Source: Thermoplasmata archaeon
GTDB taxonomy: Archaea > Thermoplasmatota > Thermoplasmata > Sysuiplasmatales > Sysuiplasmataceae
Direction of reading: 5' to 3'
Length of the DNA stretch: 36,966 bases
NCBI GenBank assembly: GCA_021811925.1
Contig: JAKAPY010000002.1
Coordinates: 1-36,966 of the forward strand
Below are positions 5,841 through 29,180 of the stretch, piece by piece; the first letter of the stretch is position 1, and each line of letters begins with the position of its first letter. The notes beneath the pieces are model-generated. The model saw only the letters and a program-made list of their open reading frames with translations. It searched no databases and was not told the origin of the DNA. The translations under genes and the position numbers were made by a program.

Positions 5841-6950
5841 TCACCTTATGAAGTCCATGTCGAGGGACTTTGTCTCGACATTGTCTGCCGGACCAAGGAT
5901 GTGCTTGGACTTGACTCCTGTGAGAACAACCATGACTCTTACCTTCTTCTCCATGGCCGGGTCGATGGCGGCACCCCATATCAGTCTGGCCGAAGGGCTG
6001 ATCTTTGTCTGGATCATCTCGGCAACCTTTTCCGCCTCGCTTACAGTCATGTCCTGGCCTCCCACGACATTGACAAGGGCGCCGTTTGCTCCCGATATGT
6101 CCACATCAATCAGCGGAGAATTTATTGCCTCCATGACAGCGTCGCTGGCCCTTTCCTCGCCTTCGCCCTCACCAAGGCCAATCATGGCGACTCCCCCGCC
6201 CTTCATTATAGTCTTGAGATCGTTGAAGTCCAAGTTGACCAGGCCGGGCTTGGTAATAACCTCGGTTATTCCCTTGATGCTCCTGACAAGCACTTCGTCC
6301 GCAACCTTGAATGCGGCATTGAGGGACAGCCTCGGCACCAGTTCGAGCAGTTTGTCATTAGGTATTACAATGACCGTGTCGGCCACATTCCTCAGCCTCT
6401 CCAGTCCCCATTCGGCGTTCTCGGCCCTTATTGCGCCCTCGGCTTTGAATGGTGAAGTGCAAATGGCGATTGTGAGCGAACCCATTTCCTTGGCCAGCTG
6501 TGAAACAAAAGGAGCCGCGCCTGTGCCTGTGCCGCCGCCAAGTCCTGCGGTGACAAAAACAATATCCGCTCCCTGAATTGACTTCCTGAGGTCGTCCTCG
6601 GCTTCTCTGGCAGCTTCCTCCCCAACCTGTGGCAGAGCGCCTGCGCCGAGCCCTCGCGTGCTTCTCCTGCCGAGCAGTATCTTGTGGGGTGCCCTGACAA
6701 TAAGGAGGTGCTGTGCATCCGTGTTGGCAGCATACATTTCTGCCCCCGTTATGCCTGTTTCGACCAGCCTGTCTATCGTGTTTGTTCCGCCGCCGCCACA
6801 ACCGACGATCTTTATGTTTGTCTTCAGCCCGGAAAGAATCTTTATTAACTCGTCGTCTTCCGCGCTGTACCCGTCCCCTGCCAGTTCAGGCTCCTCTGAG
6901 CCTTCATCCTGTGACACTCTCGATATTGCATCATTCACTAACGATTTCAT
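5841..6950 (-). CDS. ftsZ: Cell division protein FtsZ (FtsZ1-type)
   Basis: Carries [13 protein letters not shown], the tubulin signature [12 protein letters not shown], and NVVGG...VSEA. I prefer ATG 6950 ([10 protein letters not shown]), which has GAGGT 9 nt upstream, over the ORF-track start at 6980. Confidence 0.93.
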
Positions 6951-7194
6951 AAGGCCGACCTCGCATCCCACCCATCCCAAGGATCAGGAATTATAGGTAT
7001 TGTACAGGTCTATCGTTTTGAAACATTAATAAGTTTCCATAGGCGATCGCATCGTCCCCGACTCTCGAATCGTGTCTCACACCCCTTCCATGCTTTCGGG
7101 TGCCAAGGGTCGAATCACCGTTCACTTTCGGAGGCGGCTGCTGACAGCGCAGGAAGCAGTTTTAACAACACGATGCGATTCGCAGGCGTTGTAG

Positions 7195-7917
7195 ATGCCT
7201 AAGTTCAGAGTAATCCTTGTTAGGCCCGAGGTGGAAGGCAACATAGGTGCCGTGGCAAGATCGATGGCGAATTTCGGTTTCGATGAATTGTACATGGTCT
7301 CACCTGTGGGAATAGGCGTCGAAGCGCGCAACAGGGCGAAGCATGGCAACTTCATCCTCGACGGCGCCGTCCTGACGAATTCACTGGAGGACGCCCTGGA
7401 AGGCTGCGACCTTGCCATCGGAACAACAGGAATAAGGAATATCGGAGAAAAGAAATTTCTCAGGAATTTTGAGACGCCAAGGGAGTTTGCTGAAAGGGTC
7501 TCCGGAACAAGGAGGAAATACGCACTGGTTTTTGGGCCGGAAGGCCTGGGACTTTTCAACGAGGAACTCGCGAGATGCGACGCGCTGGTAAGCATTCCAA
7601 GCTCCCCAGAATACCCCGTGCTCAACCTGTCCCATGCAGTTACAGTTGTACTGTATGAACTCTTCCTGACAGGCTATGTTAAAGACTCGGTCAAGCTCTC
7701 TGTCGCATATGAAAAGGAGAAACTGAACAATCATTACTCAAGCCTGCTGGACGAGATATCCTACCCCGAGCACAAGAAGGAGAAGGCAAGGCTGATGTTC
7801 CGGCGGCTGGTTGGCAGGTCCGGCCTGTCAAAGTGGGAGTTTTTCATCATGATGGGTGTGATCACGAGAACACTCTACTCGCTGAGGCATTCCGGCGGAA
7901 AATACGCAAAGAAGTGA
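7195..7917 (+). CDS. SpoU/TrmJ-type tRNA 2'-O-methyltransferase
   Basis: Motifs VILVRPEVEGNIGAVARSMANFGFDELYMV, ALVFGPEGLGL and VSIPSSPEYPVLNLSHAVTVVLYEL match the SPOUT knot. Confidence 0.8.
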   Translation: MPKFRVILVRPEVEGNIGAVARSMANFGFDELYMVSPVGIGVEARNRAKHGNFILDGAVLTNSLEDALEGCDLAIGTTGIRNIGEKKFLRNFETPREFAERVSGTRRKYALVFGPEGLGLFNEELARCDALVSIPSSPEYPVLNLSHAVTVVLYELFLTGYVKDSVKLSVAYEKEKLNNHYSSLLDEISYPEHKKEKARLMFRRLVGRSGLSKWEFFIMMGVITRTLYSLRHSGGKYAKK

Positions 7918-8871
7918 TTACCAGGATTCCGGCCTGACGCCGGTGACTATGGCTGTCACGCTCAGCACAGCGTCGTTTCTGTCTACCTGCCTTGCTCCCA
8001 TGATTATGTGGGCCCTGTTCCCGATGAAATCTGATATGCCCTTGAGTATCCCGTGCGTCTTCTCAAGAGTAAGCGCCTCTCCTCCCGAGACATGGACGAC
8101 GGCGCCAGAAGCCCGGGCCAGGTTTGTCTGAAGCAGAGGATGCCTTGCAGCATCGTCTACGAGCGTCCGGACATCCTCGTTTTCGCTGCATATTACTGTC
8201 GATGTGCCTCCGCCCCTGAAGATTGTCCTCATGTCCGCATAATCAATATTCATCAGGGATGGTTTCAGGAGGGATCCAGACACATTTGTCACAATCTGGG
8301 AAGTAAGCGTGTCCATGACCGCAAAAGCCTGCTGCATTGTTAATTCCGGGAACTGTTTGACAAGCCTGCTGTTCTCCATTATGACGGTGCTGTCAGACTC
8401 GTGTATAAGCTCCCTCACATAATCCCTGGCCCTCTCGACCCTTCCCCTTTCAAAATCGAAGGGCATCGAAGTTATCGAGACTGCAAGTGCGCCCGCCTCC
8501 CTGGCGACAGAGGCCACTACCGGAGCCGTTCCCGTCCCGGTGCCACCTCCCATGCCCGAGAGTATGAATACAAGGCTGCTTCCGAGCAGCTCTGTTTTCA
8601 GGCGGTCGCGGCTCAGCTCGGCAGCTTTTCTTGCCAGCGCGACGTTTCCGCCCGCTCCGCGCCCGCCTGTAAATTCCCTCCCGATGAGCAGCTTCCTGTT
8701 GGCCTTTATCCTCACAAGGTGGCCGGCATCAGTATTCAGGGCTATTGTCTTCAGATTGTCTGTGCCCTCAAAGTCCAGGTTGTTCAGGGCATTGTTGCCT
8801 GCGCCGCCGCATCCCACGACTGCTACTCCAAGTCTCGGAGCAACAATCTCATCTCTTTCAGAAATGATCAT
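7918..8871 (-). CDS. ftsZ2: FtsZ paralogue (FtsZ2-type), short with no C-terminal tail
   Basis: Carries VGCGGAGNNALNNL, GGRGAGGNVALARKAAE and GMGGGTGTGTAPVVA. It is 317 aa and starts 18 nt downstream of the RHH gene. Confidence 0.88.
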   Translation of the reverse strand: MIISERDEIVAPRLGVAVVGCGGAGNNALNNLDFEGTDNLKTIALNTDAGHLVRIKANRKLLIGREFTGGRGAGGNVALARKAAELSRDRLKTELLGSSLVFILSGMGGGTGTGTAPVVASVAREAGALAVSITSMPFDFERGRVERARDYVRELIHESDSTVIMENSRLVKQFPELTMQQAFAVMDTLTSQIVTNVSGSLLKPSLMNIDYADMRTIFRGGGTSTVICSENEDVRTLVDDAARHPLLQTNLARASGAVVHVSGGEALTLEKTHGILKGISDFIGNRAHIIMGARQVDRNDAVLSVTAIVTGVRPESW

Positions 8872-16136: not shown

Positions 16137-16691
16137 TCAGTGAAGGAGGCCAGCTCCCTGCAGTTCTTCCATGATCTTCTGCTCCGCATCGCCGACATCG
16201 GACGGTTTACGCGCACCTGTGCAGACAAGCTTGCCGCTGCCGAATAGAAGGACCACGACCTTCGGTGAATCAAGCCTGTAGACAAGGCCGGGAAACTGTT
16301 CAGGTTCGTACTCGACCTTCTCGAGACCGAGACTGATGGCAATTGCATTGAGGTTTATCTCCTGCCCGAGATCGGACGAGGCGACAATGTTCTGCACCTC
16401 GATCTTGGGCTCTATCTTGATTTCTATGCCTGCCCTTCCAATCTGCTTTGAAACCTTGCTGATTGCGAGCTTGACTTCGTCAAGGCTCTTGGCACCGGTG
16501 CAGACGACCTTTCCGCTCCTGAAAAGAAGCGTTGCCGTCTTCGGCTCCTTTAATCTGTAGATCAAACCGGGGAACTGCTCAGGCTCATATTCCGCACCGT
16601 CGAGTGCAAGGGCAATAGCCTGCAGATCAAGCTGTTCGCCAAGAGATGTCGATGCGACCACATTCTCTATCTTAATTGTTGGCATTTTCAT
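16137..16691 (-). CDS. tbp: TATA-box binding protein
   Basis: Shows two direct repeats: IENVVAS...EQFPGLIYRL..PK.A.LLF.SGK.VCTGAKS and VQNIVASSDL...EQFPGLVYRLDSPKVVVLLFGSGKLVCTGARK. Confidence 0.95.
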   Translation of the reverse strand: MKMPTIKIENVVASTSLGEQLDLQAIALALDGAEYEPEQFPGLIYRLKEPKTATLLFRSGKVVCTGAKSLDEVKLAISKVSKQIGRAGIEIKIEPKIEVQNIVASSDLGQEINLNAIAISLGLEKVEYEPEQFPGLVYRLDSPKVVVLLFGSGKLVCTGARKPSDVGDAEQKIMEELQGAGLLH

Positions 16692-17165: not shown

Positions 17166-17735
17166 ATGACAGATGACCTCACTGCCGGGGAAGATATGCT
17201 TATTTCGCTGCTTTTCGAGGGCGCGGGGAAGCAGAAGTATAACGTCCCCGTAGGGGGAAAGACGCGGTTAGTGAAGGAACTCTTCATACTCTGGAAAGTG
17301 TACGGGGTGGATACCGGATATGAGTTCATACCTTACTATTTTGGACCGTTTTCGCCTGAAATCTATAGGGATCTTGCAAGTTTAGATGCTTTTGGGCTCA
17401 TCAAGATTGAGGATGCCATCTCAGGTAGCGAGATTTCTCTTACGCCGGAAGGAGTCAAGAGAGCTACCGAAGCGAGAGCGAAACTGCCTCAGGCGACTTT
17501 GGAAAGGTTAGTGAGTTGCAAGGAAAAATACAATAAGATGCCTTTGACGGACCTCATTGATTATGTCTACAAACGCTGGCCCAAATTTACAGATAAGAGC
17601 CTCAATGATCCGGATATATTGTTGAAGGAGCTAAGTGCCGAGTTTGACAAAGTGGGTATAACTGACGAAGATATCAGCGAGACTATTGAAGAGTACCGGA
17701 AAGAGAAGAAGTCGAAGGCCAAGGAATGCGTGTAG
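17166..17735 (+). CDS. Panacea/DUF4065-like (SocA-type) putative antitoxin
   Basis: GKTRLVKELFILWKV...FIPYYFGPFSPEIYRDLASLDAFGLI parallels the DUF4065 pattern T.LKLQKLLY...F.AW.YGPV.P.LY...YG. It overlaps the downstream PIN gene by 10 nt. Confidence 0.6.
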   Translation: MTDDLTAGEDMLISLLFEGAGKQKYNVPVGGKTRLVKELFILWKVYGVDTGYEFIPYYFGPFSPEIYRDLASLDAFGLIKIEDAISGSEISLTPEGVKRATEARAKLPQATLERLVSCKEKYNKMPLTDLIDYVYKRWPKFTDKSLNDPDILLKELSAEFDKVGITDEDISETIEEYRKEKKSKAKECV

Positions 17736-18142
17736 TCGTAGATACCAATGTTTTGGTATCAATCATAAAGCATCGTGAAAGAGAAGTGATGAATGCCATC
17801 TACAACACGATAAAAGACAAACTCACAATAATTGTATTCTGCAGAGCAACCTATGACGAATTGAAAGAGGTTCTGTCCAGGCGCAAATTCAGGAATATCA
17901 ACAAGACAGTTATTAATGGCTATTTGGCATTTCTATCCGAAAGGGCAGACTGGAAAGAGCCAAATCGGCATGGCAATGAGGCTATCGACCCCGATGATCA
18001 GGTGTTTATCGATCTCGCCGTAACAACCAACTGCAGGTATCTGATAACTGGCAACCTCAAGCATATGCCCCAGACTAGAATTGTTGGACGCGTGTCCATC
18101 GTTTCTCCCCACGAATTCGCTACAGCTGAAAAACTACTATAA
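17726..18142 (+). CDS. PIN-domain toxin (TIGR00305/COG1569-like)
   Basis: Carries VVVDTNVLVSII, ...ATYDELKEVLSRRKF... and DPDDQVFIDLAVTTNCRYLITGNLKH. Size (138 aa) and acidic residues are typical of PIN RNases. Confidence 0.85.
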   Translation: MRVVVDTNVLVSIIKHREREVMNAIYNTIKDKLTIIVFCRATYDELKEVLSRRKFRNINKTVINGYLAFLSERADWKEPNRHGNEAIDPDDQVFIDLAVTTNCRYLITGNLKHMPQTRIVGRVSIVSPHEFATAEKLL

Positions 18143-18230
18143 TCAATGTTTAGGTATGGATGCCCTTCGACACATGAGCCCTTTCCCCCTTACGGGACCA
18201 AGAGAAATAGATTTAATCACAAGCAGAAGA

Positions 18231-18246
18231 GTTTAATCACAAAGCC
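18231..18246. repeat. Right terminal inverted repeat GTTTAATCACAAAGCC
   Basis: This is the inverted partner of 16767-16782 (15/16). Confidence 0.8.
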
Positions 18247-18255
18247 AACGGAATT
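18247..18255. repeat. Right target-site duplication AACGGAATT
   Basis: This is the direct-repeat partner of 16758-16766 (8/9). Confidence 0.7.
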
Positions 18256-18383
18256 GTTTTCGATCCAAATTACACGCGGATATGATAACAAGCGCCTCCC
18301 GCCCTCGGCTTTATAAGGAAAGACTTGGACCGGAGGAAATCCCTCCATGAAGCGGGCTTTTCCCATCAAGGGGAGGTGCGGTT

Positions 18384-18704
18384 GTGTTTATGCCTCGCAA
18401 AATGGCCGCTTCTTTCCGCCCGCAGCTTTCTCGCTTCAGTATTGGAATCACAGGAGGGTTACCCGTAAAGGGAAAGGCAGTTGCTTCCTCGGGTCAGGCG
18501 GCAGGAGAGCCAAGAGTGCATGATACAGTTTCCGCCAACGTCCTGGGCCGCGTGCTGAGCGTGGACCAGGCAGGCAGCTTTGCAGGTATTCCCGCCGGTG
18601 TGCTATTTGGAGGTGTGCTGGCGGGTACGCTCGGAATAGGTCTCCACCACGCCGTTTCAGGACTTGGACTGCTTGTCAACGGCGCAGAGTACGAATCTGC
18701 ATAA
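18384..18704 (+). CDS. Hypothetical small protein, possibly a C-terminal remnant of an MFS-type transporter
   Basis: GGGGAGGTG lies just upstream of GTG 18384 / ATG 18390. The C-terminal half, GRVLSVDQAGSFAGIPAGVLFGGVLAGTLGIGL, resembles the last MFS helices. The ORF is only 106 aa. Confidence 0.3.
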   Translation: MFMPRKMAASFRPQLSRFSIGITGGLPVKGKAVASSGQAAGEPRVHDTVSANVLGRVLSVDQAGSFAGIPAGVLFGGVLAGTLGIGLHHAVSGLGLLVNGAEYESA

Positions 18705-18765
18705 GCAACCGGCACAATTGCAGTTCGTGAACCAGCAGGACTCCGCTTCCCGGGAAGGGATTTCT

Positions 18766-19497
18766 GTGAGAAGAATAGCGGAGTTGCCGGAACTTGAAAG
18801 TCTTCAGATTCGAGGCATTTCATTCTTCGATCCTTTCCTTAAGCAGTTTGCGCTTGAAACAATGCTTTCCGGCGGGGAAGTCCACGTCGCTCAATCTGGG
18901 GACGGCAATATCGGAGGAATGCTGCTTTACGACGATGTTGAAAGGGCAGGCAGCATTTTCACAAGATCCGGTGAAACGCTCGAGGCCCTCTTCAAGCTCA
19001 AGGAAAAGATGGTATTTTTCTCCGAGCTTCAGCTTGAACTCAGAAAGGAGGACTATCTCATATACACTATAGACCTGACCCGCTACTCCTTCTCCCACCG
19101 TTTCAATCATGAAGTCAGTGTCGCGGGCGAGGACGACATGGCCGAAATTCTCGGCCTTATGACTTCTTCATACTCCAGGATAAACACACGCTGGATCAAG
19201 ATAGCAACTGCTGCCGGTGAAAAGTGTTTCATTGTCCGGACCCATCACGGAATAGAGGGAGTCGCATGGCTGTCAGTGGTTGGAGGGAGAGGCAGGCTGC
19301 ACTCGCTGGTTGTCTCTCCACAGTTCAGGAAGCAGGGAGTCGGGACTGACCTGCTGTTTGCGAGGCTGCTGTGGCTGAGGAGCATGGGTGGAAGGTTTGC
19401 ATTTTCAGAGATCGCAGAATCAAACAAGCACTCCCGGGCAATTGCCCTCAGCGGCGGGATGCGGGAGTCCGGAGTCATGTATCAGTACCGCGGCTGA
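18766..19497 (+). CDS. GNAT-family N-acetyltransferase
   Basis: The C-terminus reads LHSLVVSPQFRKQGVGTDLLFARLLWLRSMGGRFAFSEIAESNKHSRAIALSGGM. The start is uncertain: the track ORF begins at 18664, and GTG 18766 (VRRIAELPEL) avoids overlap with the preceding ORF. Confidence 0.7.
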   Translation: MRRIAELPELESLQIRGISFFDPFLKQFALETMLSGGEVHVAQSGDGNIGGMLLYDDVERAGSIFTRSGETLEALFKLKEKMVFFSELQLELRKEDYLIYTIDLTRYSFSHRFNHEVSVAGEDDMAEILGLMTSSYSRINTRWIKIATAAGEKCFIVRTHHGIEGVAWLSVVGGRGRLHSLVVSPQFRKQGVGTDLLFARLLWLRSMGGRFAFSEIAESNKHSRAIALSGGMRESGVMYQYRG

Positions 19498-19524: not shown

Positions 19525-20592
19525 TCAGCTTCTCGGGGCACCGCAAACCGGACATCTGAGGGCCGTCGATTCTATAAGCGAACCGCAAAACTGGCATTTT
19601 ACCTTCACCACTTCCTTGACAACAATCTGCTGCACCTGCGGCTGTTCCGGATTGAAGCTTATCGGCGGCGGCCCCGGAGGCTGTTGACGGGGTGCGGCCT
19701 GCTGCGGCGGCGCGGGCGCATACCCGTACCGAACCTTTCCCTCGGCTGGATGCTGAGGCAGTTTTTCCCTCCTTCTTCTGGAGAGCGAACGCAGGACAAG
19801 CGCAGTAATAACCAGCAGGACGACGATCACAACGATGGCAATGACCAGCAAGTCGTTCATGTTCAGGGATGCAGGCTGGGACGGTGCCTGGCCAGGTGTC
19901 AGGCTGTAGCTTGTGGATGTCACATACAGAGTCTCTGTATAAGTGAATCCGTCACCTAAACTGTTGGTGTCGTGCTCGGTGTAGACGTAGCCAACAATAT
20001 AACCGGTTGATATGTCAAAATACGCCTTCCAGTTGTATGTCGCCGTGAAGCTTCCGTAAACGTCATTTCTCGGGTATGATCCGTTCCCCTCGGAGAATAT
20101 CGTCTTCACATACGATCCAGTGGAGGGGAGTTTGTAGCTGTAGCCGGTCGAGACAACTTTCATCTGGGTGTTCAGCAGGTAGAACTGGCTTCCCTGGCCG
20201 AGAGAGTTGTTCATGTAAAACCAGACATAGGGGTTGGAGTAGCCTGCCTGGTTGTCCGTGCCGTTGACATATCTGTAGGTGCTGTACGAGAAAGTGAAAT
20301 TGCCTGCCGAGCTTCCGCTGCTCGAGCTGCCTGTGTTGTTGCGGAATGTCCAGAAATACTGATAGAACGAGGATGCCACATTCCCTGTAAGCAGGGATGT
20401 TATCTGCTCCGTGCCGTTGACGTTCTGCTGCTCGGTATACCCTGTGTAGTTGCCCTGCCCGCCGTTGACAGTTATCGTCTCGTAGTAGTTGAGGCGGTCA
20501 CCGGACTTTGGTGTGTAGTGTGCGGTCGCAGCCGACGGCATGAGCAGCACTGAGACAAGCGCCACTGCAATCAGTGCCTTCCACAAAATCAT
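19525..20592 (-). CDS. Type-I membrane protein: signal peptide, sequon-rich Tyr/Ser/Thr/Asn ectodomain, one TM helix, Pro/Gln linker, C-terminal zinc ribbon
   Basis: Signal peptide MILWKALIAVALVSVLLMPSAATA and seven N-x-S/T sequons by my count. TM helix LLVIAIVVIVVLLVITALVL is followed by RSLSRRRRE, and the protein ends CQFCGSLIESTALRCPVCG. ATGA overlap with the upstream gene. Confidence 0.8.
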   Translation of the reverse strand: MILWKALIAVALVSVLLMPSAATAHYTPKSGDRLNYYETITVNGGQGNYTGYTEQQNVNGTEQITSLLTGNVASSFYQYFWTFRNNTGSSSSGSSAGNFTFSYSTYRYVNGTDNQAGYSNPYVWFYMNNSLGQGSQFYLLNTQMKVVSTGYSYKLPSTGSYVKTIFSEGNGSYPRNDVYGSFTATYNWKAYFDISTGYIVGYVYTEHDTNSLGDGFTYTETLYVTSTSYSLTPGQAPSQPASLNMNDLLVIAIVVIVVLLVITALVLRSLSRRRREKLPQHPAEGKVRYGYAPAPPQQAAPRQQPPGPPPISFNPEQPQVQQIVVKEVVKVKCQFCGSLIESTALRCPVCGAPRS

Positions 20593-22121
20593 CCGTAAAA
20601 TCCCCCAAGGGCATGTATGTGTCCGGGGTGAGCTCCGCCGATGCCGCTGAAGGTTGAATAGTACGAGGAATGCACTATGATCATGGGCATGAACAGGGGC
20701 ACGAACGGGCGTGAGGCCGCATATGTGAACTGGACGGGCGTCTCTGCGATGCGTGCTGTGCTGTCAAGGTCCCTGACAATCTCATTCTTTATTCCATGAA
20801 TCATCCTGACTGCAAGTGCAATCAGTTCCGACTGCTCAAGTCCCCCCGCCTTTGAACCAATGATTGAATATGTCTTCTCAAGCAGGTTGAGCGTCTCGTT
20901 CGCCTCCATGACAGGGATGGAAGTCAGTATCGCTGCAGCAACGAGCGGATATTCCAGATAGTGCTTGAGCCCTTCCGTTATTATCGCCAGCTTGCTCTGG
21001 AAACCGTCGGCTGGAAGATCGGATGCCGCCAGGTATGCAGACGAAAGCTCCGTGTCCTCGGACACTTCAAATCCCCATGAATTGAAGAGCGCCCTCGTTG
21101 ACATGAATTTCCTCTTTAAATCATCCGGGGGGCTGTTGATTATCGACATCAGGGCAGCGGACTCGTATGAATTTGTGAGCTGCCTGAAATCGCGGAACGA
21201 GTCAAGCGGGAATGTGCCGTCATACCTCTTCCCGAAGAAGAGAATCGAACTGACGCCTGCAGATATCTCCTTTGGAACATCAAGGTGATGCCTGACCTGG
21301 TGGTCAAGGTCGAACAGCTCGGGGATTGTGCTGTTGAGGTCTGCGCCTGAACATGCGAGCACCTCGGCGGCGGTCATCCTGTTTTCCAGGTTGTGGGATA
21401 TCTTCTCAATACCCTGAAACGCCTGATAGAACCTGTTGTCAAGGTCCCCCGGGTTCCCCTGAATCTTGGCGAGGCCGATTGAAGTGCTCCACCTTTCAGA
21501 CATATCGGCATCCACCAGTATCTGGGCAAGATAACGGAAATGGTTCACACCCCTGACAGCTATTCCGTCAAGTTCGCCGAGAGTCTGGTTCAGCTGTTGC
21601 ACGTATGCGGTGAAGTCGGTATCCGAAACCCTGTAAATCCTTATCCCAAGGTCTTTCATCGAAAGTAGACCAGTTTCGGTCAGTGCCACATATCCATCCG
21701 CGTAGGAGACAAGCTTGTCCAGTAGCGTCGTCTTGGCTATGAAAGAGGCAAGCGTCGACTCCTTCCCGGTTATGTCTGCGCCAAGCTTGCTGAGCGTTTC
21801 CTTCTCCTGCTGCACCTTCTGCATTTCAGCCTGTTCCTGGCCCTTGGTGTGCGCGATTCTGAAGAATATGGACTGGGCTTTCTTGAAATCAGGCCCGAAT
21901 TCCCTTGACTCCTGCTCCTCGGCCGTTTTCTCCTGGGAAATGTCTCTGGTGAGCTGCTCTATCTGTCCGACATCCGCAGTCAGCTTGCCGTAGTCGTCCT
22001 TTGTGAGAGTCTGTATGTAGCCTGCTGCCTTCAATGATTCAATGTCCGCCGGTGCCACATTGACAGTTATCGTTCTTGCTGCAATCTGGTTGAAAAAATA
22101 ATAGACTTCGGAGCACTTCAT
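20589..22121 (-). CDS. Hypothetical 510-aa protein (charged coiled-coil-like N-terminal part, helical repeat body, Gly/His-rich tail)
   Basis: A long ORF with ATGA overlaps at both ends. I recognised no family-defining motif. Confidence 0.75.
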   Translation of the reverse strand: MKCSEVYYFFNQIAARTITVNVAPADIESLKAAGYIQTLTKDDYGKLTADVGQIEQLTRDISQEKTAEEQESREFGPDFKKAQSIFFRIAHTKGQEQAEMQKVQQEKETLSKLGADITGKESTLASFIAKTTLLDKLVSYADGYVALTETGLLSMKDLGIRIYRVSDTDFTAYVQQLNQTLGELDGIAVRGVNHFRYLAQILVDADMSERWSTSIGLAKIQGNPGDLDNRFYQAFQGIEKISHNLENRMTAAEVLACSGADLNSTIPELFDLDHQVRHHLDVPKEISAGVSSILFFGKRYDGTFPLDSFRDFRQLTNSYESAALMSIINSPPDDLKRKFMSTRALFNSWGFEVSEDTELSSAYLAASDLPADGFQSKLAIITEGLKHYLEYPLVAAAILTSIPVMEANETLNLLEKTYSIIGSKAGGLEQSELIALAVRMIHGIKNEIVRDLDSTARIAETPVQFTYAASRPFVPLFMPMIIVHSSYYSTFSGIGGAHPGHIHALGGFYG

Positions 22122-23293
22122 TCATTTCCCCAGTCGACGATCGGAAACTGCTTATAAAGACTTTCTTCGTTTAATTTATTCTTAATATTCAATATTACGG
22201 AATTGCTGCTCTCCGACACATCTATGAATGGATCGCTCCCGAGGGCTTGGGCGACAAGGGTTCCAAACTGTATTTTCCTGTCATTTCCGCCACCGAAACG
22301 TGCCGCCCGCTCCCGTTCTATCTGCTCGTATGCAAACATGAATTCATACAGGGAACGGTGCAGCTGCTCCTCTATCTTGTCCTCGACCCTTCCCCTGTCC
22401 AAAATCCTTTCTTCTATTCCTTCAAGGTCAACGAAGTAGACCGTGCCGTCGGGGGATATCACCGCATCCTTGTCGAGCCAGACGTCGTTGAAGTCAAGGC
22501 CCTCAAATCTCCCGTCGTCCCGCATGGACATTGTTCTTGGAAACAGCGTGAGGAGTGCTATGCAGCTCCTGATGAAGTTGCATTCGAACAGGTATGCCTT
22601 GTCGTTGCTGTCGATGTGGAACATGTCGAATATTCTCTTCATGTTCCTGCCAATGACATTCCCTGCATGGAAATAGACTCTTATGTTGGAGGGGACAAGG
22701 CGCAGTTCCTGGACAATCCTTCCCGTAAACCTCCTGTACCAGTATATCTTTTTCAGCTGCTTCTCCAGCTCTTCCGGAAGAAATGCTATGCTGACCACGG
22801 GTGCGATTCTGAAACCGTTTATCGATGTGATGTTTGCCATCTCGGAGACCCTCATCGCAGTTGTCGCGTGTTCAAGCCCCTGTCCTCCGTAAGGTGAGCC
22901 CCTGAGCCACAACTCTCCTGTTATGAAACGGGCGGGGCCACTGGTCGAGCCTTTGAGAATCTTTTCCCTGAGGCTCATATCCCGGACCAGTGAGGAAACA
23001 TACTCGCCGTTGAGAAGTTGCATGGAGAACGGGTCGGTTGTGGAACCTATTCCCTTAACCGAGAGATGGAATTCGGTCCCATCGATTGTTGCGACCGGTT
23101 CAGGAGATATGGCTCCCCTGTTGTCGTCCTCTACAAATTCCCTCTTTCCTTCACTCTCGGCGTTCATCAGTGGAATGACCGACTCCGGCAGGTAGATCGA
23201 ATTGAACCCCTGAGCAGTTGAAAAATGCCTGCTTGTCGAAACGCCATCGGCCGCGTACGAGTACAGGTCGAGCCGTGTCCCGAGCATCTCCAT
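22118..23293 (-). CDS. Hypothetical 391-aa protein, possibly an ATP-grasp-like or kinase-like enzyme
   Basis: YFHAGNVIGRN ... DKDAVISPDGTVYFVDLEGIE resembles the ATP-grasp NLHRGG ... VMEVN arrangement. It is the first gene of the operon, downstream of a 200-bp gap. Confidence 0.75.
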   Translation of the reverse strand: MEMLGTRLDLYSYAADGVSTSRHFSTAQGFNSIYLPESVIPLMNAESEGKREFVEDDNRGAISPEPVATIDGTEFHLSVKGIGSTTDPFSMQLLNGEYVSSLVRDMSLREKILKGSTSGPARFITGELWLRGSPYGGQGLEHATTAMRVSEMANITSINGFRIAPVVSIAFLPEELEKQLKKIYWYRRFTGRIVQELRLVPSNIRVYFHAGNVIGRNMKRIFDMFHIDSNDKAYLFECNFIRSCIALLTLFPRTMSMRDDGRFEGLDFNDVWLDKDAVISPDGTVYFVDLEGIEERILDRGRVEDKIEEQLHRSLYEFMFAYEQIERERAARFGGGNDRKIQFGTLVAQALGSDPFIDVSESSNSVILNIKNKLNEESLYKQFPIVDWGNE

Positions 23294-23494
23294 TGTTTGT
23301 CTCCGTGAATTTCATACAAATAGAGGACATGGGCCTATTAACCCTTACACAAAATTCGATGTCCCCGAATGGTGCCTTGTTGCGTATGGCCGACTTTCAG
23401 CTTCTGCGGGCCGAACACATTCACCCGCCGAAACAGGTCGCCGCGTTAGTGCTGCACCCGTGAAGCCATCTGTTTCAGGCGCAAATTCGGCCCT

Positions 23495-24211
23495 TCAATC
23501 CCTCGTGAACCTGAGTTTCACCAGGAATTTCAGGTTGTTCCATCCGTCTTTCCAGGTCCTGAGCTTCTTCTCCCCCTGCCTGAGGCTGAACTCCACTGGA
23601 ATCTCCTTGAAGCGGACGTGCTTCGCCGCCTTGATCTTTATTTCCTCCGAGAACGGAAATCCGTTGCTTCTCACATTCAGCTTCTCGAAAACGGATTTCT
23701 TCAATATCCACATGCCGCTCTGCGAGTCACTCAGCCTTACACCGAACAGAACTCTCGTTGTCATATTCAGTATCCAGTTGCCGAACCGGTGAGTCCTGTT
23801 CATCGCCCCTTCCCTCATCTGGCCGAATCTGTTTGCAGTAATGAAGTCAAGCTGATCCCTGTTGAATATGCCAAGCAGAAATGGTATTGCCTCGGGCGGG
23901 TATGATGCGTCTGCATCCATTGTTATGATTGTTTCCCCCGCAGCAGCTCCAAAGCCGGTCTTGTATGCCCTGCCATAGCCCCTCTCCGGCTCCCTTACAA
24001 CCCTGCATCCCTTCTGCTGCGCTATCTCCGTTGTCCTGTCCCTGGAGTTGGTGTCCACTATGATGATTTCGTAGTCTCTTGTCACCGAGTCCAGGTTTGC
24101 CCTGATCCTGTCCACTACGGGGCCTATGGACTTTTCTTCGTTTATCGTGGGTATGATTACCGATATCACGGTGCTACAAGAGGGATTGAACGTTCCTCCC
24201 CTAATAATCAT
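23495..24211 (-). CDS. Family 2 glycosyltransferase (dolichyl-phosphate hexose synthase-like)
   Basis: Carries ISVIIPTINEEKSIGPVVDRI, YEIIIVDTNSRDRT, GYGRAYKTGF and TMDADASYP. The start is uncertain: the track start is 24277, ATG 24211 is preferred, and a later GTG is also possible. Confidence 0.85.
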   Translation of the reverse strand: MIIRGGTFNPSCSTVISVIIPTINEEKSIGPVVDRIRANLDSVTRDYEIIIVDTNSRDRTTEIAQQKGCRVVREPERGYGRAYKTGFGAAAGETIITMDADASYPPEAIPFLLGIFNRDQLDFITANRFGQMREGAMNRTHRFGNWILNMTTRVLFGVRLSDSQSGMWILKKSVFEKLNVRSNGFPFSEEIKIKAAKHVRFKEIPVEFSLRQGEKKLRTWKDGWNNLKFLVKLRFTRD

Positions 24212-24330
24212 TACCGTTATATTCGCAGCCGTGCGCATGCCAGGGCATGCCGATCTTCCGTGTCCGGCCAGAGCCATTCATAAAGGCGAGTGGTCCCTTC
24301 CAGAATCACATCACAGGGCATAACCGGTTT

Positions 24331-25110
24331 TCAGTTCCTTCCTTCTCCGAACAGCTTGTACGCCACATAACCCATGAGGGCTGCGAAAACCCTGATCATG
24401 GAATGCATTGTCATCTTCCTCTTGAAAAGCTCCAGCGGTTTGTAGCTTGACCAGAGCCTGCCGTATTTCAATGTGAGCTGCTTTCTCCCGGCACCATTCC
24501 AGAAAGCCTGTTTCGCAAAGGAATAGAGGTTCTCTCTCGTCTTGTGGTAGACAACTGCCTCCTCGTTGAACATGACTGGAAAATGGCCGTCGACCGCCCT
24601 GATGTTCATGTCGATGTCCTCCGCCGTTATGAACCACCTGTCGAAGAATCCTATCCTGTCAACAACACTCCTGTGATACACCAGGTTGCAGGAAGGGTAA
24701 GTGACATCCATCCCTCTTCTGAACAGTTCGACTCTCTGCATCCCCATATACGGTCCCTGGCCTATGTAAACGGTCTTGCCTGCGACCACTCCGGGCGAAT
24801 TCATTTTCTTCTGAACTTCGGGCAACCAGTTGCTGTCTGCAATGCAGTCCCCGTCTATGAAAGCAAACGCATCACCCCTTGCCCGGTTGATGCCTATGTT
24901 CCGGCCTTCCCCCCTCTTGCATCCCTGGACGACCAGATGTATGTAGTCATATCTTCCTGCAAACTCCCTGACCGCTTCCGCTGTGCCGTCCTCGCTGTCG
25001 GAATCCACAACAATGATCTCCTTGTCCACATCCTGCCTCACGAGGCTGTCGAGGAGGTCCCTTATGTTTTCCACCTCGTTTCTCACTGTTATGATCACGC
25101 TGAACAGCAC
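24331..25110 (-). CDS. Family 2 glycosyltransferase
   Basis: Carries MLFSVIITVRNEVENIRDLLDSLVRQD, EIIVVDSDSEDGT and FIDGDC. Confidence 0.85.
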   Translation of the reverse strand: MLFSVIITVRNEVENIRDLLDSLVRQDVDKEIIVVDSDSEDGTAEAVREFAGRYDYIHLVVQGCKRGEGRNIGINRARGDAFAFIDGDCIADSNWLPEVQKKMNSPGVVAGKTVYIGQGPYMGMQRVELFRRGMDVTYPSCNLVYHRSVVDRIGFFDRWFITAEDIDMNIRAVDGHFPVMFNEEAVVYHKTRENLYSFAKQAFWNGAGRKQLTLKYGRLWSSYKPLELFKRKMTMHSMIRVFAALMGYVAYKLFGEGRN

Positions 25111-25152
25111 AACTGGGCATTTGTGTTACGCTTAATAAACTGACACCCCCGA

Positions 25153-25647
25153 TCAGCTGGACCGGGGCTCGCTGCGCATGTAATCGTCGACAGCCTGCAG
25201 TATACCCTGCTTCCCGACGATTGCATACTTCAGGCCAGCCCTTCTTGCCAGCTCACCGTCAATGTCATCCCTGTCGCCTATGACATACTCGTCGGAGGAG
25301 CCATGGTCCTTCCTTGCCTGGGCAATCAGTCCCGTGAGCGGCTTCCTGCAACCGCAGCCGTCTTCGGGTTTGTGCGGGCAGTAGTATATCCCGTCTATGT
25401 GCGCATCATGTTCAGCAAGCTGCCTCTTCATCTCGTCATTCACCTCCGCCATCTGGGTGGCGTTGAAGTATCCCCTGCCTATCCCAGACTGGTTCGTCAG
25501 CACTATCACCGCTACACCGCTTCTGTTCAGCCTGCTGATGGCTTCCCCTGCGCCCTTCATCAGCCTCACCTGCTCCCTGCTGCTGCAGTAGGGGCAGTCT
25601 TCGATTATCGTATTGTCCCTGTCCAGGTATACTGTCCTTTTTCCCAT
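25153..25647 (-). CDS. HAD-IIIA phosphatase, D,D-heptose-1,7-bisphosphate phosphatase (GmhB)-like
   Basis: Carries VYLDRDNTIIED, LTNQSGIGRGYF and YYCPHKPEDGCGCRKPLTGL (zinc-binding loop). ATG 25647 is preferred over the track start at 25722. Confidence 0.8.
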   Translation of the reverse strand: MGKRTVYLDRDNTIIEDCPYCSSREQVRLMKGAGEAISRLNRSGVAVIVLTNQSGIGRGYFNATQMAEVNDEMKRQLAEHDAHIDGIYYCPHKPEDGCGCRKPLTGLIAQARKDHGSSDEYVIGDRDDIDGELARRAGLKYAIVGKQGILQAVDDYMRSEPRSS

Positions 25648-25721
25648 GTCTTCTGCTGTGTTCCGAATCATCACACATGCATGAATGTTTTCCAGGTGAA
25701 AACATTTTACAGCACCCTGCA

Positions 25722-26174
25722 ATGCCTGTGGTCATGGCGGATGAGAAGCTGAGTGCGTTGCTCAACACTCTGCAGGTGCCTCTCCCTGAACTCAAGAAGG
25801 AAGCGAATTTCGGCCTGAAGATGCGTATCCAGCATGTTGCATACATGCTCCAGTTTGTCGGGGAGGAGGGCTTCAACTTCTCATTCTCAACCTACTTCAG
25901 GGGACCGTATTCCGTTGATCTTGCCAAAAAATGCTCTCTCATGACAGAGAATCCGGAGGGGGCGATAGGCAGAAGCGAGCTTGCAAGGTGGTTCTTTGAC
26001 CATGACCTCGAATGGCTCAATGCCGCCGTTACAATTATGATGCTCAGTTCTTCCCACAGCGGCGGGGAGAGGGAGTGGTTCGAGGCTGTCCGCCAGTACA
26101 GGGAAAGGCTGAGTGAAGAGGATTTCAAATCCATCCTCGCGGAACTCCGGAAGAGGAAGATAATCGCCGTCTGA
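25722..26174 (+). CDS. Hypothetical protein, second Panacea/DUF4065-like (antitoxin-like) gene with no adjacent toxin
   Basis: LKMRIQHVAYMLQFVGEEGFNFSFSTYFRGPYSVDLAKK parallels the motif in 17166-17735. The start is ATG 25722 or 25734. The stop lies 3 nt from the convergent oxidoreductase stop. Confidence 0.5.
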   Translation: MPVVMADEKLSALLNTLQVPLPELKKEANFGLKMRIQHVAYMLQFVGEEGFNFSFSTYFRGPYSVDLAKKCSLMTENPEGAIGRSELARWFFDHDLEWLNAAVTIMMLSSSHSGGEREWFEAVRQYRERLSEEDFKSILAELRKRKIIAV

Positions 26175-26176
26175 AT

Positions 26177-29062
26177 TCAGTTGTTTTTCCCGGCCGCTGT
26201 CGCCCTGCTCAGCTGCAGGCCCGCAGATCTCGCTAGCAGCAGAAGCGTCATCTCGGGCGCCCGTCCCGTCGCCTGCTCTATCTGGAGCGCGCACTCTTCA
26301 CCGTCAGTGACAAGCACCGTGCCCTCGTCCATTTCCCTGCCCGCCTCAACAAACACCTTCTTGCCTATCTCCATCGACAGGTTGAAGGTCTCCTTTGCAA
26401 AACCGTAGCTTCCACCCGCGCCGCAGCATCCTGCTTGTATCTCCTCTACTTCTGCGCCAGGGATCATTTTCAGCAGCTCAACGACCTTCCTGTCAGTGCC
26501 GAGCGCCCTCGAATGGCAGGAGGGATGATACAGTATCCTTCTTGCCACGGGCCTGAAATCTAGCCCCGTCTCCTCCTCCCTTATGACCTCCAGCAGGAAT
26601 TCGTGGACATCCATTGCCCTCCTTGCCACCGTCCTGGATCGTTCGTCGTCGACAACGCTCAGGTAGTCGTTCCGGAGGGCCATCACAGCCGATGGCGAGG
26701 AGCAGACGACCGGCGTCCCCCTTACGGCGTAAGGATAGAGGTAGCTTACATTCTCAAGCACATACTTGCCAGCCTCCCTGAGCATCCCAAGATATATCAG
26801 CGGCAGGCCTGTGAAGTGCTGTTTGGGGAAGAGCGTCGCATAGCCGGCCTCCTCCAGAATGCCTACAACCGCCCTGCCTATTCTGGAGTCGAAGTAGTTC
26901 GCATACATGTCCGAGAAGTAGGCAACCTCCCCCTTCTTCCCCGGTCTGGAGACATGCTTCTCAAACCACTCGCCGAATGGCTCGAGGTCAAACTCAGGGA
27001 TCTTCCTCCGCCTGTCGATTCCGAATGCGTGCTCAAGAGCGGATCTCGCATTCCTTGATCTTGCAAGCCTGTTTGAGAGCCTGGCCACGCTTGAGGCAAC
27101 CATCGTGTACAGCTCGTAATCAGAGAAGAACCTGGAACTTCTCCCCACTGTTCCTGCGCCGACGCGTTTGACATGCTGCGCCCTCGCCTCAATCATGATC
27201 TTGGGCGTGTTGACATGGCTCGGGCACTCGGCCGCGCACATCTTGCACTCAATGCAGTAATCGTAGATGGAACGTGCGTACTCGCCGCTGTACATCGCGA
27301 TCGTGGGCACGCCTCCCATGTTGCTCAGCAGCCTCACAAGGTTGTTCAGGCCCCGAGGAGAAGTGAGTTCGCTGCCTGTTGTCTTGTACACCGGGCACTG
27401 CGTCTCGATGAATGAAAGCGTCCTGCACTCCCCGCATCCGTGGCATGCCTCTATTTCATCTATCATTGACAGGGGCCGCTCGTCGAATCTGGAGATTACA
27501 TCAGGTGTGTTCCAGTTGAGCCTGGGCCTGAATGGCCTTCTCTCGTGCTCGGGGCCGAACCTGTATGGCTGCTCTTCCTCCGTGCCTGGTTGTCTCGACC
27601 CGCCAAGTATGTTCAACGGATCGAAACTCTTTTTCAGAAGCTCGAAAGCAGTTGTGAGCCTTTCATCCATGGCATAACGGGCGTAGGGCTGAAGCTGCAG
27701 CCCTATTCCATTCTCCGATGCTATCCTTCCGCCCTCCGCCTTCAGTGCAGTTGCAAGCTCAGTCATGAATGATGCAAGCTTGTCCCTGTCATCGGATTTC
27801 CTGAGGTTGAGGAACGGCCTGATGTACATGATGCCCTCCGCTGCGTGCCCGAACACGAGCGACCTGAGGGCATACCGCCTCGAAATCTCCTCCACAGCGG
27901 TCATCAGGTCGGGCATTTTTGCAGGCGGGACCTCGACTCCCTCCGCCGCGACAACGTACCTTCCGGAGGGAGACGGCCTCTGAAGCCTGTGTATCGCATC
28001 CTTGAGGCCATCCATGACTTCTTCCGGGCTGCCGCTGACATCGACGATCTCCGATGCTCCCCTGCCTGCAAGATCTTCTTTCGAAAGGCTGCCTGATTTG
28101 AATATTGCCAGGAGCCAGTGCATCACGTTCCGGGGAAAGGTGAATCCCTGGTGGACGGATCTGAACGCGGATGCAAGCGTCTGGTCTATGTATTCCAGGC
28201 AGACTGCGTCCTCCCTGGCAGCGGCTGCAAACCTGAATGCATCCTTCGCAGTCCCGAACCCTATCAGCACGGAGCGGGCCGTGTCAAGCCTGTCAACTAT
28301 CCTCATTGTTGCGGATGTGAATATTGAAAGTGAACCTTCTGAACCGATCATGAGGTCAACGAAGTCGATGCTGTCCTGCTTGAACGAAGAAATCCTGTAG
28401 CCGCACGTTCCGCGGAATGGCGCAGCGCCCTCCTTCAGCAGCGGCAGCAACTTTGACTTCAGGATATCGATATCCGGGTGCTGTATCTCGCCCTCTCCCC
28501 TCTTCAGCTCGAGTCTCCTGCCTTCCGCATTTACGGCTTCTATTGCAACAACTGTGTCGTGCATTCTGCCGAAACCGGTCGAAAGGAAACCGCCCGCATC
28601 ATTGGACATGCACCCACCCACGGTGCACTTCCAGCCCTTGACGGGGAAAATGGGAACCATTTTACCGTATTTCTTGAGTTCAAGATTCAGTGCCTCTATT
28701 GTTATCCCCGCACTGGCAGTGACGAGGCCGTTTGCTATATCCAGCGCGAGGATTGAATTCATGTTGCGGCTGAAATCAAGAACGATACCGTTGCCAAGGG
28801 CTGCATCAGTCACGCTTGTTCCGGCACCCCTCGGAGTCACCGGTATCGAGTATCTGCGGCAGAACTGGAGAGTCTCGACGACGTCGTCCGTTCCCTCAGG
28901 TGCAATGACGGCCAGCGGCTCAATCTCGAAGTTTCCCGCATTTGTCGAATACGAGCTCGTCTCTATCGCCGAATCGGCGATCTTGCCCCTTATCTTTCCT
29001 TCGAGCTCGGCTCTGTGCCTCCTCCAGACCTCCTCGAATCCGCCAGATGTGAGAAGTGCCAT
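26177..29062 (-). CDS. Fused FAD-linked oxidase / 4Fe-4S dicluster / CCG-domain oxidoreductase (YdiJ- or GlcD-GlcF-fusion-like; D-lactate/glycolate dehydrogenase type)
   Basis: The N-terminal FAD-binding PCMH region reads ...VTPRGAGTSVTDAALG.... The centre has two Cys clusters, CHGCGECRTLSFIETQCP and CIECKMCAAECP. The C-terminus has two CCG-type regions, including ...IQAGCCGAGGSYGF.... ATG 29062 is preferred over TTG 29080. Confidence 0.8.
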   Translation of the reverse strand: MALLTSGGFEEVWRRHRAELEGKIRGKIADSAIETSSYSTNAGNFEIEPLAVIAPEGTDDVVETLQFCRRYSIPVTPRGAGTSVTDAALGNGIVLDFSRNMNSILALDIANGLVTASAGITIEALNLELKKYGKMVPIFPVKGWKCTVGGCMSNDAGGFLSTGFGRMHDTVVAIEAVNAEGRRLELKRGEGEIQHPDIDILKSKLLPLLKEGAAPFRGTCGYRISSFKQDSIDFVDLMIGSEGSLSIFTSATMRIVDRLDTARSVLIGFGTAKDAFRFAAAAREDAVCLEYIDQTLASAFRSVHQGFTFPRNVMHWLLAIFKSGSLSKEDLAGRGASEIVDVSGSPEEVMDGLKDAIHRLQRPSPSGRYVVAAEGVEVPPAKMPDLMTAVEEISRRYALRSLVFGHAAEGIMYIRPFLNLRKSDDRDKLASFMTELATALKAEGGRIASENGIGLQLQPYARYAMDERLTTAFELLKKSFDPLNILGGSRQPGTEEEQPYRFGPEHERRPFRPRLNWNTPDVISRFDERPLSMIDEIEACHGCGECRTLSFIETQCPVYKTTGSELTSPRGLNNLVRLLSNMGGVPTIAMYSGEYARSIYDYCIECKMCAAECPSHVNTPKIMIEARAQHVKRVGAGTVGRSSRFFSDYELYTMVASSVARLSNRLARSRNARSALEHAFGIDRRRKIPEFDLEPFGEWFEKHVSRPGKKGEVAYFSDMYANYFDSRIGRAVVGILEEAGYATLFPKQHFTGLPLIYLGMLREAGKYVLENVSYLYPYAVRGTPVVCSSPSAVMALRNDYLSVVDDERSRTVARRAMDVHEFLLEVIREEETGLDFRPVARRILYHPSCHSRALGTDRKVVELLKMIPGAEVEEIQAGCCGAGGSYGFAKETFNLSMEIGKKVFVEAGREMDEGTVLVTDGEECALQIEQATGRAPEMTLLLLARSAGLQLSRATAAGKNN

Positions 29063-29180
29063 TATTACAACTATAAACAAACAGTGGCGCGTATTTAAAC
29101 AAATTCGACTCTGTCGCTTTTCCGCGGAACAAACGGTTTAATTGAAGCAGGCGGTTACGTCCATCTCCGGAGGCAATGGA

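Follow-up and report, generated by a model that had tools for sequence, protein, structure and literature searches.

A conserved set of four archaeal genes for a putative kinase-fold protein, a helical partner, a membrane ectodomain protein and a GNAT acetyltransferase

The window analysed here is a stretch of 36,966 nucleotides from a Thermoplasmata archaeon (GenBank assembly GCA_021811925.1, contig JAKAPY010000002.1, forward strand), and it contains four genes, termed gene 1 (g1), gene 2 (g2), gene 3 (g3) and a convergent gene for a GNAT acetyltransferase, that recur together in many genomes. We regard it as a real possibility, if rather less than an even one, that they form an undescribed four-component module for membrane-coupled protein modification or signalling. 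What is established for this module is the reality of its genes, the conservation of all four, the fusion of membrane ectodomain and acetyltransferase in some lineages, the membrane topology, the GNAT motif and the presence in g1 of residues of catalytic type. The four genes are as follows.

Gene 1 (g1): 22118–23293, minus strand; open reading frame (ORF) of 391 amino acids, soluble protein.
Gene 2 (g2): 20589–22121, minus strand; ORF of 510 amino acids, all-helical orphan protein.
Gene 3 (g3): 19525–20592, minus strand; ORF of 355 amino acids, type-I membrane protein.
GNAT acetyltransferase gene: 18664–19497, plus strand; convergent to g3, 277 amino acids when read from TTG.

The three minus-strand ORFs lie exactly where an earlier note on this DNA had placed them, the 4-nt ATGA stop/start overlaps that it described at the g1/g2 and g2/g3 junctions are both read in the sequence, and the translationally coupled three-gene operon that it proposed is real. 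The ORFs are genuine genes and not the product of chance, since each has many homologues at E ≤ 0.001 (1318 for g1, 751 for g2 and 612 for g3); identity to the nearest large homologue group is ~45–57%. The earlier judgement that none of the three could be assigned to a named family has held, as Pfam, NCBIfam, PADLOC and PHROGs gave no significant match for g1, g2 or the g3 ectodomain. In the PDB, searching by sequence or by profile with g1 (profiles A1 and A7), g2 and g3 returned nothing useful, and the names of homologues in all sources are only ‘hypothetical’ or ‘zinc ribbon domain-containing’. No description of the four-gene module was found in the literature searched, and the locus is, as had been suggested, a good candidate for an undescribed system.

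The order g1, g2, g3 and convergent GNAT, here called Type A, repeats in ~70 of 80 related genome loci and is seen in essentially all contigs long enough to reveal all four genes, with identities to the window of ~52–67% for g1, 38–67% for g2, 39–65% for g3 and 29–48% for GNAT. Clustering of the flanking ORFs of these loci revealed no further conserved gene besides the four; the flanks of different genomes bear no relation to one another and often consist of housekeeping genes, e.g. Trm1 and RNase HII. Given this synteny with variable flanks, the GNAT gene at 18664–19497 is the fourth member of the unit, and the glycosylation and toxin–antitoxin genes that adjoin the module in the window are incidental. 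The operon had earlier been described as closed and self-contained, with the GNAT gene as a mere boundary; this was mistaken, the GNAT gene being a conserved partner whose product is fused to a g3-type ectodomain in other lineages. The accessory-genome, defence or glycosylation context that was read into the neighbourhood does not survive either, in view of the unconserved flanks, the housekeeping neighbours elsewhere and the lack of any PADLOC match.

Type A was found in 246 species-level genomes, almost all of them soil, peat or bog metagenome-assembled genomes (MAGs) labelled Thermoplasmata/Thermoplasmatota or Bathyarchaeia, MAG taxonomic labels being partly unreliable. In a simple neighbour-joining tree of g1, the Bathyarchaeia copies make up one clade nested within several deep Thermoplasmata clades, and the window g1, which is ~57% identical to the large Bathyarchaeia/Thermoplasmata group, pairs with a Thermoplasmata MAG copy at 67% identity; the tree suggests a Thermoplasmata origin of the module with one transfer into Bathyarchaeia. 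Type A modules were also seen on contigs labelled Thaumarchaeota, Nitrososphaerales, Ca. Acidoferrum, ‘bacterium’ and Acidiferrales (loci L003, L035, L038, L074 and L133). Those of their copies that are in the g1 tree nest within Bathyarchaeia or Thermoplasmata clades, which suggests that these contigs are mis-binned or mislabelled. Locus L133 holds, at 4653–8745, a rearranged module in which g2 (split into two ORFs), g1 and GNAT are co-directional and g3 is absent from the 12-kb locus.

A deep profile search for g1 relatives returned only 138 cluster representatives, the distant ones without a Pfam domain, and the gene contexts of these representatives together with a second genome scan identified another architecture, Type B, in which a ‘long GNAT’ gene encoding 540–600 amino acids is followed by a g1 homologue and then a g2 homologue. 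Its hosts are Myxococcota/Sandaracinaceae, Ca. Methanoperedens, Methanobacteriota, other Thermoplasmatota and one Hodarchaeota MAG, and exactly three genes (the fused ectodomain–transmembrane (TM)–GNAT gene, g1 and g2) are kept in 19–21 of the 21 Type B loci. The long GNAT consists of a signal or anchor sequence, a g3-type ectodomain, one TM helix then basic residues, and a cytoplasmic part. In hhalign comparisons the g3 ectodomain matched the N-terminal ectodomain of the long GNAT with probabilities of 99.5% (E=3e-23) and 98.3% (E=3e-14), and the cytoplasmic part aligned with the entire window GNAT, its N-terminal extra domain included (E=2e-20 and 3e-26).

The single TM helix with its following basic residues is common to Type A g3 and the Type B fusion, and an HMM (hidden Markov model) scan of the loci found the zinc ribbon in Type A alone, the type in which GNAT is encoded separately. 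Because ectodomain and TM helix are fused to GNAT in other lineages, we infer that the g3 membrane protein and GNAT act as one physical unit on the inner side of the membrane; most simply, the zinc ribbon and the conserved strand preceding it would be a docking device that replaces the covalent link between the two. At one Type B locus (L085:534–707, minus strand) a gene for a 57-aa double-zinc-ribbon protein lies just upstream of the fused GNAT gene, an arrangement that the other Type B loci do not share.

The layout of g3 comprises a signal peptide (residues 1–24), an ectodomain (residues 25–245), a TM helix (residues 248–267), the basic stretch RSLSRRRRE, a Pro/Gln linker and the zinc ribbon. 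The signal peptide, seven sequons, one TM helix with RSLSRRRRE, and CxxC-x10-CxxC noted previously are all present, and its description as a type-I membrane protein whose zinc ribbon lies in the cytoplasm is upheld.

g3 ectodomain: 19858–20520, minus strand; new domain family with seven N-x-S/T sequons.
g3 cytoplasmic end: 19528–19650, minus strand; conserved QPxVQQIVVKEVVKV strand and CxxC-x10-CxxC zinc ribbon.

In composition the ectodomain is 13% Thr, 13% Ser, 12.5% Tyr, 11% Gly and 9% Asn. The median number of sequons per g3 homologue is 7, single positions are kept in 40–77% of sequences, and this pattern is compatible with an ectodomain that is probably N-glycosylated. The zinc-ribbon cysteines C333, C336, C347 and C350, which supply both CxxC knuckles, are kept in 48 of 48 sequences; the Pfam Zn_Ribbon_1 model scores 19.8 bits on the window g3 against a cut-off of 25, and many homologues carry PF13240/PF13248.

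The GNAT protein matches Pfam Acetyltransf_1 at 30.4 bits (cut-off 20.7) and consists of an extra N-terminal domain of ~130 residues followed by a GNAT core, which carries the acetyl-CoA motif RKQGVG with R222, G225 and G227 invariant. Among remote relatives, the protein N-alpha-acetyltransferases RimI, Naa10/ARD1 and Naa30 come nearest, and the next, weak ones are phosphinothricin, aminoglycoside and streptothricin acetyltransferases and MshD; all score below family cut-offs (25.9 bits against the cut-off of 86.4 for TIGR01575). Treating the N-terminal half as a degenerate second GNAT gave an hhalign P of 0.063. The start of the gene is uncertain: the TTG at 18664 gives 277 amino acids and the GTG at 18766 gives 243, and homologues have 264–270.

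Gene 1 has no TM segment, and none of its 1318 homologues is named or carries a Pfam domain. Its AlphaFold2 model has a predicted local distance difference test score (pLDDT) of 87 and a predicted TM-score of 0.89. With this model Foldseek found nothing at E ≤ 0.001 in either of two structure libraries. In the PDB the top matches open to interpretation were the NIS synthetases AcsD, IucC, DesD and DfoC, ACVR1 (probability 0.94), the pseudokinases ROP5 and ROP2, maltokinase, APH, COQ8A and AceK, and the viral library BFVD gave Ser/Thr, APH-like and ChoK-like kinases. There was no ATP-grasp enzyme in the top 50 matches in either library. At the level of profiles, g1 had no ATP-grasp match in Pfam/NCBIfam at E ≤ 1, and 44 diverse members of its superfamily had none at E ≤ 10; nor did these members match Pkinase, APH, RIO, ABC1 or similar profiles, even at E=10.

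Across the same 44 members the conserved positions are R59, K80-G81-x-G83, P134-x-G136-x-Q138, P165, Q195, R198-L-x-P201-S202-x-x-R205, D276, G283 and D289-L-E291, and three segments carry most of what follows.

g1 residues 56–84: 23042–23128, minus strand; β1–β2 loop DDNRGA (R59) and β3 strand ending SVKGIGS (K80-G-x-G).
g1 residues 198–205: 22679–22702, minus strand; R-L-V-P-S-N-I-R, a near-invariant Arg pair seven apart.
g1 residues 276–291: 22421–22468, minus strand; D276...D289-L-E291, presumed metal-binding/catalytic pair, DFG-like.

R59, K80, G81, G83, R198, D276 and E291 are conserved in at least 90% of members, and R205 and D289 in 100%. In the model, K80 lies at the end of the strand of residues 73–80 and D289 follows the strands 277–279 and 285–287, and the placing of D276 before β7 and of D289 after β8 would fit a kinase catalytic segment. 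The β3 lysine and the DFG-type aspartate expected of the protein-kinase-like (PKL) fold are represented by K80 and D289. We conclude that g1, whose fold similarity to kinases is weak, is probably a new and very divergent kinase-fold protein that founds an unnamed superfamily, and that it is very probably catalytically active.

The pattern of conserved residues resembles that of SelO/YdiU. Along the full-length hhalign path, g1 R59, K80, R198 and R205 correspond to E. coli SelO R86, K107, R170 and R177, the last three of which are, by identical spacing, K113, R176 and R183 of P. syringae. These three residues of P. syringae SelO hold the gamma-phosphate of a flipped ATP (PMC8097203), and g1 supplies, at motif level only, the same lysine and two arginines as K80, R198 and R205. 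When regions were compared separately, g1 residues 50–92 found the equivalent SelO site (GDGRG...LKGAG) as best match with P=0.002, and residues 186–212 likewise found theirs with P=0.006, against P=0.47–0.70 for three control regions; the PYGGQG loop is collinear with SelO, although weakly so (P=0.35). A SelO-like mechanism, in which g1 would transfer a nucleoside monophosphate (NMP), is suggested by these motifs as a supported lead, not as demonstrated membership. The global mode of hhalign was uninformative.

The reading of g1 preferred in the earlier note, as an ATP-grasp enzyme of RimK type, fails. Besides the lack of profile and fold matches, no g1 region fell on the KxxxGxxGxG, QEY or ExN sites in a region-wise comparison with RimK (whose profile is shallow, at 88–100% identity, which limits the power of the comparison), the catalytic region of g1 finding its best match at RimK residues 2–16. 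The kinase reading that the note had ranked as less good is the one that the fold evidence favours, and the broader view of g1 as a nucleotide-enzyme-like protein is supported. More distant, stand-alone g1-like proteins of 401–452 amino acids (L163, L165 and L167) occur on archaeal contigs, one beside ribosomal protein genes; they lack GNAT, g2 or g3 partners and offer no functional clue. The giant repeat proteins P0494 (1612 amino acids) and P0507 (2953 amino acids), with DUF5907/DUF7369, give 7–11 partial matches to positions 16–116 of the g1 profile, which are possibly compositional and probably uninformative.

Gene 2 agrees with its earlier description as a 510-residue helical protein with a Gly/His tail. 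Its AlphaFold2 model (pLDDT 79) starts with a small domain, after which come a long helical hairpin at residues 54–136 and ~14 further helices at residues 149–441, followed by a tail (residues 445–510) with pLDDT below 50 that is predicted to be disordered. There is no TM segment, and the model had no significant structural neighbour in the PDB.

g2 C-terminal tail, residues 484–510: 20592–20672, minus strand; HSSYYSTFSGIGGAHPGHIHALGGFYG-COOH, with the hallmark HPxHxH...[YFW]G-COOH.

Tail residues Y487, G496, H498, P499, H501, H503 and G506 do not vary in Type A, and the tail is among the best-conserved parts of g2; HPxHxH...[YFW]G-COOH also ends almost all complete Type B g2 homologues, e.g. 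FHPVHSHYVYG, HPMHMHTVPYFG and RPSHSHGSSG; at the other end of the protein, an M-x-C N-terminus is frequent among homologues. Since the tail is invariant and disordered and belongs to an obligate partner of a kinase-fold enzyme, this Tyr/Ser/His-rich segment is the likeliest place for modification or docking. YdiU modifies Tyr and His (bioRxiv 10.1101/692707). Several other leads on g2 were set aside: a DUF1598 match (23.6 bits) occurs in only 2 of 52 homologues and was taken as chance, a DNA-binding domain at residues 50–151 was too weakly indicated (MCM6 C-terminal winged helix at E=0.023; Rio2_N in 2 of 52), and designed alpha/alpha toroids are only weakly similar. Internal repeats were not detected in the helical domain (P=0.1).

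Upstream of g1, the ~200-bp gap and TATA-like box reported before the g1 ATG are both there, the gap measuring 201 bp (23294–23494) up to a GT2 gene; a GGAG is read ~10 nt upstream of the ATG. The window, which is archaeal, has a TBP gene at 16137–16691.

TATA-like TTAATAGG: 23334–23341, minus strand; 41–48 nt before the g1 ATG, a candidate archaeal promoter element read from the sequence.

Directly upstream of the module is a GT2–GT2–HAD phosphatase block (23495–25722, minus strand), and beyond it, at 26177–29080 on the same strand, a 967-aa fusion of FAD_binding_4, FAD-oxidase_C, two 4Fe-4S clusters and a CCG domain (GlcD/HdrD-like). On the other side, at 17166–18142 on the plus strand, a 189-aa ORF without a family overlaps a PIN_3-domain gene (17726–18142) by 10 nt, and the two look like a toxin–antitoxin-type pair. 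Between the PIN gene and GNAT (18143–18704) are ~520 bp without a convincing gene, in which a Gly/Ala-rich ORF of 106 amino acids (18384–18704, plus strand) may be a gene remnant. Neither the GT2–GT2–HAD block nor the PIN pair is syntenic with the module elsewhere, a GT2 match being found in 1 of ~80 loci. A mycothiol-like pathway (glycosyltransferase, HAD, ligase and MshD-like GNAT) was considered and rejected, as the glycosyltransferase and HAD genes are not syntenic neighbours elsewhere.

In the mechanism that we propose for the module, g3 puts its probably N-glycosylated ectodomain outside the cell and its zinc ribbon inside, where in window-type modules the ribbon would dock the soluble GNAT to g3. 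Residues K80, R198, R205 and D289 of g1 are predicted to match the SelO/YdiU flipped-ATP arrangement best, and because of this match among invariant residues it is proposed that g1 may transfer NMP (AMP or UMP), and not phosphate, to a protein side chain. g2 would be the dedicated partner of g1, its tail the likely site of modification or docking, and the state of the ectodomain would control acetylation and nucleotidylation (or phosphorylation) of g2 itself or of targets that g2 recruits. We infer which parts touch one another, what reaction g1 carries out, what its substrate is and that the module signals. A more specific form of the proposal, that g1 is a new SelO-like branch of nucleotide-transferring pseudokinases which, together with an ectodomain-controlled, membrane-tethered GNAT, writes nucleotidyl and acetyl marks on the g2 tail and perhaps on its conserved N-terminus, is put forward tentatively, as one with a modest chance of being right. 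An enzyme and a scaffold may, as suggested earlier, act through the tail of the membrane protein; the fusion, however, couples that protein to GNAT, and the conserved tail that stands out most is that of g2.

Several points weigh against this proposal. The best Foldseek E-value of g1 is 8e-3, with TM-scores of 0.2–0.4, and all of its interpretable matches are PKL proteins or NIS synthetases, SelO structures not being among the top 50. SelO/YdiU (PF02696) gave no HMM match to g1, the 44 superfamily members included, and no SelO chain appeared in the PDB HMM search. The full-length hhalign of g1 against an 81-sequence SelO alignment reached only P=0.044 (probability 1.2%), with unrelated controls at 0.07–0.31, and the catalytic-loop region (D276...D289-L-E291) did not align to SelO NTDN...DYG (P=0.53). 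Beyond g1, GNAT could act on a small molecule, g2 could be an enzyme or structural protein rather than a substrate, and the ectodomain as a ‘sensor’ is an assumption.

Considering what else such a gene set might do, one reading is canonical phosphosignalling, with g1 a divergent Ser/Thr/Tyr kinase that acts on g2 or cytoplasmic g3 and SelO-like motifs that are convergent or coincidental. The highest Foldseek probability does belong to ACVR1 (0.94, as above), the viral library gives Ser/Thr kinases, the β3 Lys and DFG-like Asp are conserved, two residues at the position of an HRD-type Asp, D270 and D274, never vary within Type A, and Ser, Thr and Tyr abound in the g2 tail. Yet D270/D274 are not superfamily-wide, g1 is without a Gly-rich GxGxxG loop, the R-x6-R pair that canonical kinases lack is conserved, and the failure of 44 members to match Pkinase, APH or RIO HMMs at E=10 also counts against such a kinase, which we therefore hold to be unlikely, though well worth keeping in view. 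A small-molecule pathway, distinctly unlikely in our estimation, would make g1 a NIS-type carboxylate-activating ligase or a small-molecule kinase and have GNAT acylate the same metabolite, as in aerobactin/desferrioxamine synthesis or AAC(6')-APH(2''), with the His-rich-tailed g2 binding metal or carrying the product. It draws on the presence of AcsD, IucC, DesD and the GNAT–NIS fusion DfoC among the best g1 Foldseek E-values and TM-scores, on the APH- and ChoK-like kinases among the other matches, on the weak GNAT matches to acetyltransferases (phosphinothricin, aminoglycoside, streptothricin) and MshD, and on a g2 tail whose histidines could bind metal. The superpositions on NIS synthetases, however, reach TM-scores of only 0.33–0.38 with root-mean-square deviations of 9–15 Å, g1 is ~200 residues shorter, has no IucA/IucC Pfam match and does not qualify as a NIS synthetase, there is no conserved biosynthetic enzyme, exporter or receptor gene beside the module, and a large GNAT-fused ectodomain is hard to explain in a cytoplasmic pathway.

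The remaining alternatives appear to us improbable. Anti-virus defence or conflict, in which a membrane sensor would act with effectors (a kinase-like protein and a GNAT toxin) in an accessory island, could call on the PIN-domain pair and variable region that the window module adjoins, and on a distribution that is scattered across domains and includes one probable transfer into Bathyarchaeia; it is improbable given that no PADLOC or PHROG match was found, that the flanks are unrelated and often housekeeping, that no nuclease, protease or pore-forming effector is present, and that the module proteins are unusually well conserved, unlike fast-evolving defence genes. The RimK-type ligase of the earlier note, which would add amino acids to a C-terminus such as the terminal Gly of g2, has in its favour a superficial motif resemblance in g1 (VQE; D...DxE) and the invariant, Gly-ended C-terminus of g2, and the nucleotide sites of ATP-grasp and kinase folds are related; with no family match, no fold match in either Foldseek top 50 and no mapping of RimK sites, we think it quite improbable. 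A cell-envelope or N-glycosylation accessory role, in which the module would work with the GT2–GT2–HAD genes in the biogenesis of surface glycoproteins, is suggested by the adjacency of two GT2 genes and a HAD phosphatase gene and by the sequon-rich g3, and is very improbable in our view, since the synteny is lacking in other genomes (see above) and Myxococcota also carry the module.

The interest of the membrane-coupled modification module lies in the fact that g1, g2 and the g3 ectodomain are three unnamed families, without a Pfam model or a solved relative, that are kept as a fixed set in several hundred uncultivated Thermoplasmata and Bathyarchaeia species from soil and peat. The fusion gives them a testable wiring, in which the ectodomain is coupled to an acetyltransferase, and the motifs of g1 predict transfer from the alpha- and not the gamma-phosphate, in dependence on K80, R198, R205 and D289. 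If the proposal is true, this would be a new receptor-linked system of post-translational modification and would extend SelO-type flipped-ATP chemistry to archaea; the SelO-like reading would imply a new kind of transmembrane signalling common to soil archaea, an Asgard lineage and Myxococcota. Should g1 prove an ordinary kinase, the module would still be a new signalling architecture. Myxococcota (Sandaracinus) provide a cultivable entry point.

Among known systems, the closest comparison for g1 is with the AMPylating-UMPylating pseudokinases SelO/YdiU (PF02696), two-lobed kinase-like enzymes as g1 probably is, with the same order of motifs at almost the same spacing: the basic β1–β2 loop (DGNR[SA] vs GDGR[AG]), the β3 K-G-x-G-x-T, P-Y-x3-G, R-x2-P-S-x2-R, in which the second Arg stands seven positions after the first, and further on a putative Asp...Asp counterpart, the g1 superfamily being similarly without a strictly conserved HRD-type Asp. 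g1 differs from SelO in lacking HMM-level similarity, in a helical insertion of ~55 residues between β3 and hinge, in its catalytic loop (DKDA/VDLEG vs NTDN/IDYG), in being ~90 residues shorter without the C-terminal Cys/Sec tail of SelO, and in always being encoded with g2 and GNAT, which SelO is not. RimK/tubulin-tyrosine-ligase ATP-grasp enzymes offer a parallel in concept, an ATP-dependent enzyme that goes together with a protein whose C-terminal tail does not vary, whereas g1 has none of the ATP-grasp features sought in it. GNATs also occur alongside ATP-using enzymes that are kinase-like or NIS-synthetase-like in AAC(6')-APH(2'') and DfoC/IucB-IucA/C, which act on small molecules and from which the module is set apart by the lack of family matches or pathway genes, by the membrane tethering of its GNAT to an ectodomain and by an obligatory 500-aa helical partner. 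By sequence, the nearest enzymes to the GNAT core, though remote, are RimI/Naa acetyltransferases, which share its canonical acetyl-CoA motif, whereas the module GNAT falls far below their family cut-offs, carries an extra N-terminal domain and is membrane-fused in Type B. Lastly, receptor Ser/Thr kinases such as PknB, with its PASTA ectodomains, show a similar succession of ectodomain, single TM helix and cytoplasmic modifying enzymes, which makes an outside-in logic plausible for the module; here, in contrast, the ectodomain belongs to a new family and is tied to an acetyltransferase and not to the kinase-like enzyme, g1 being soluble and separate.

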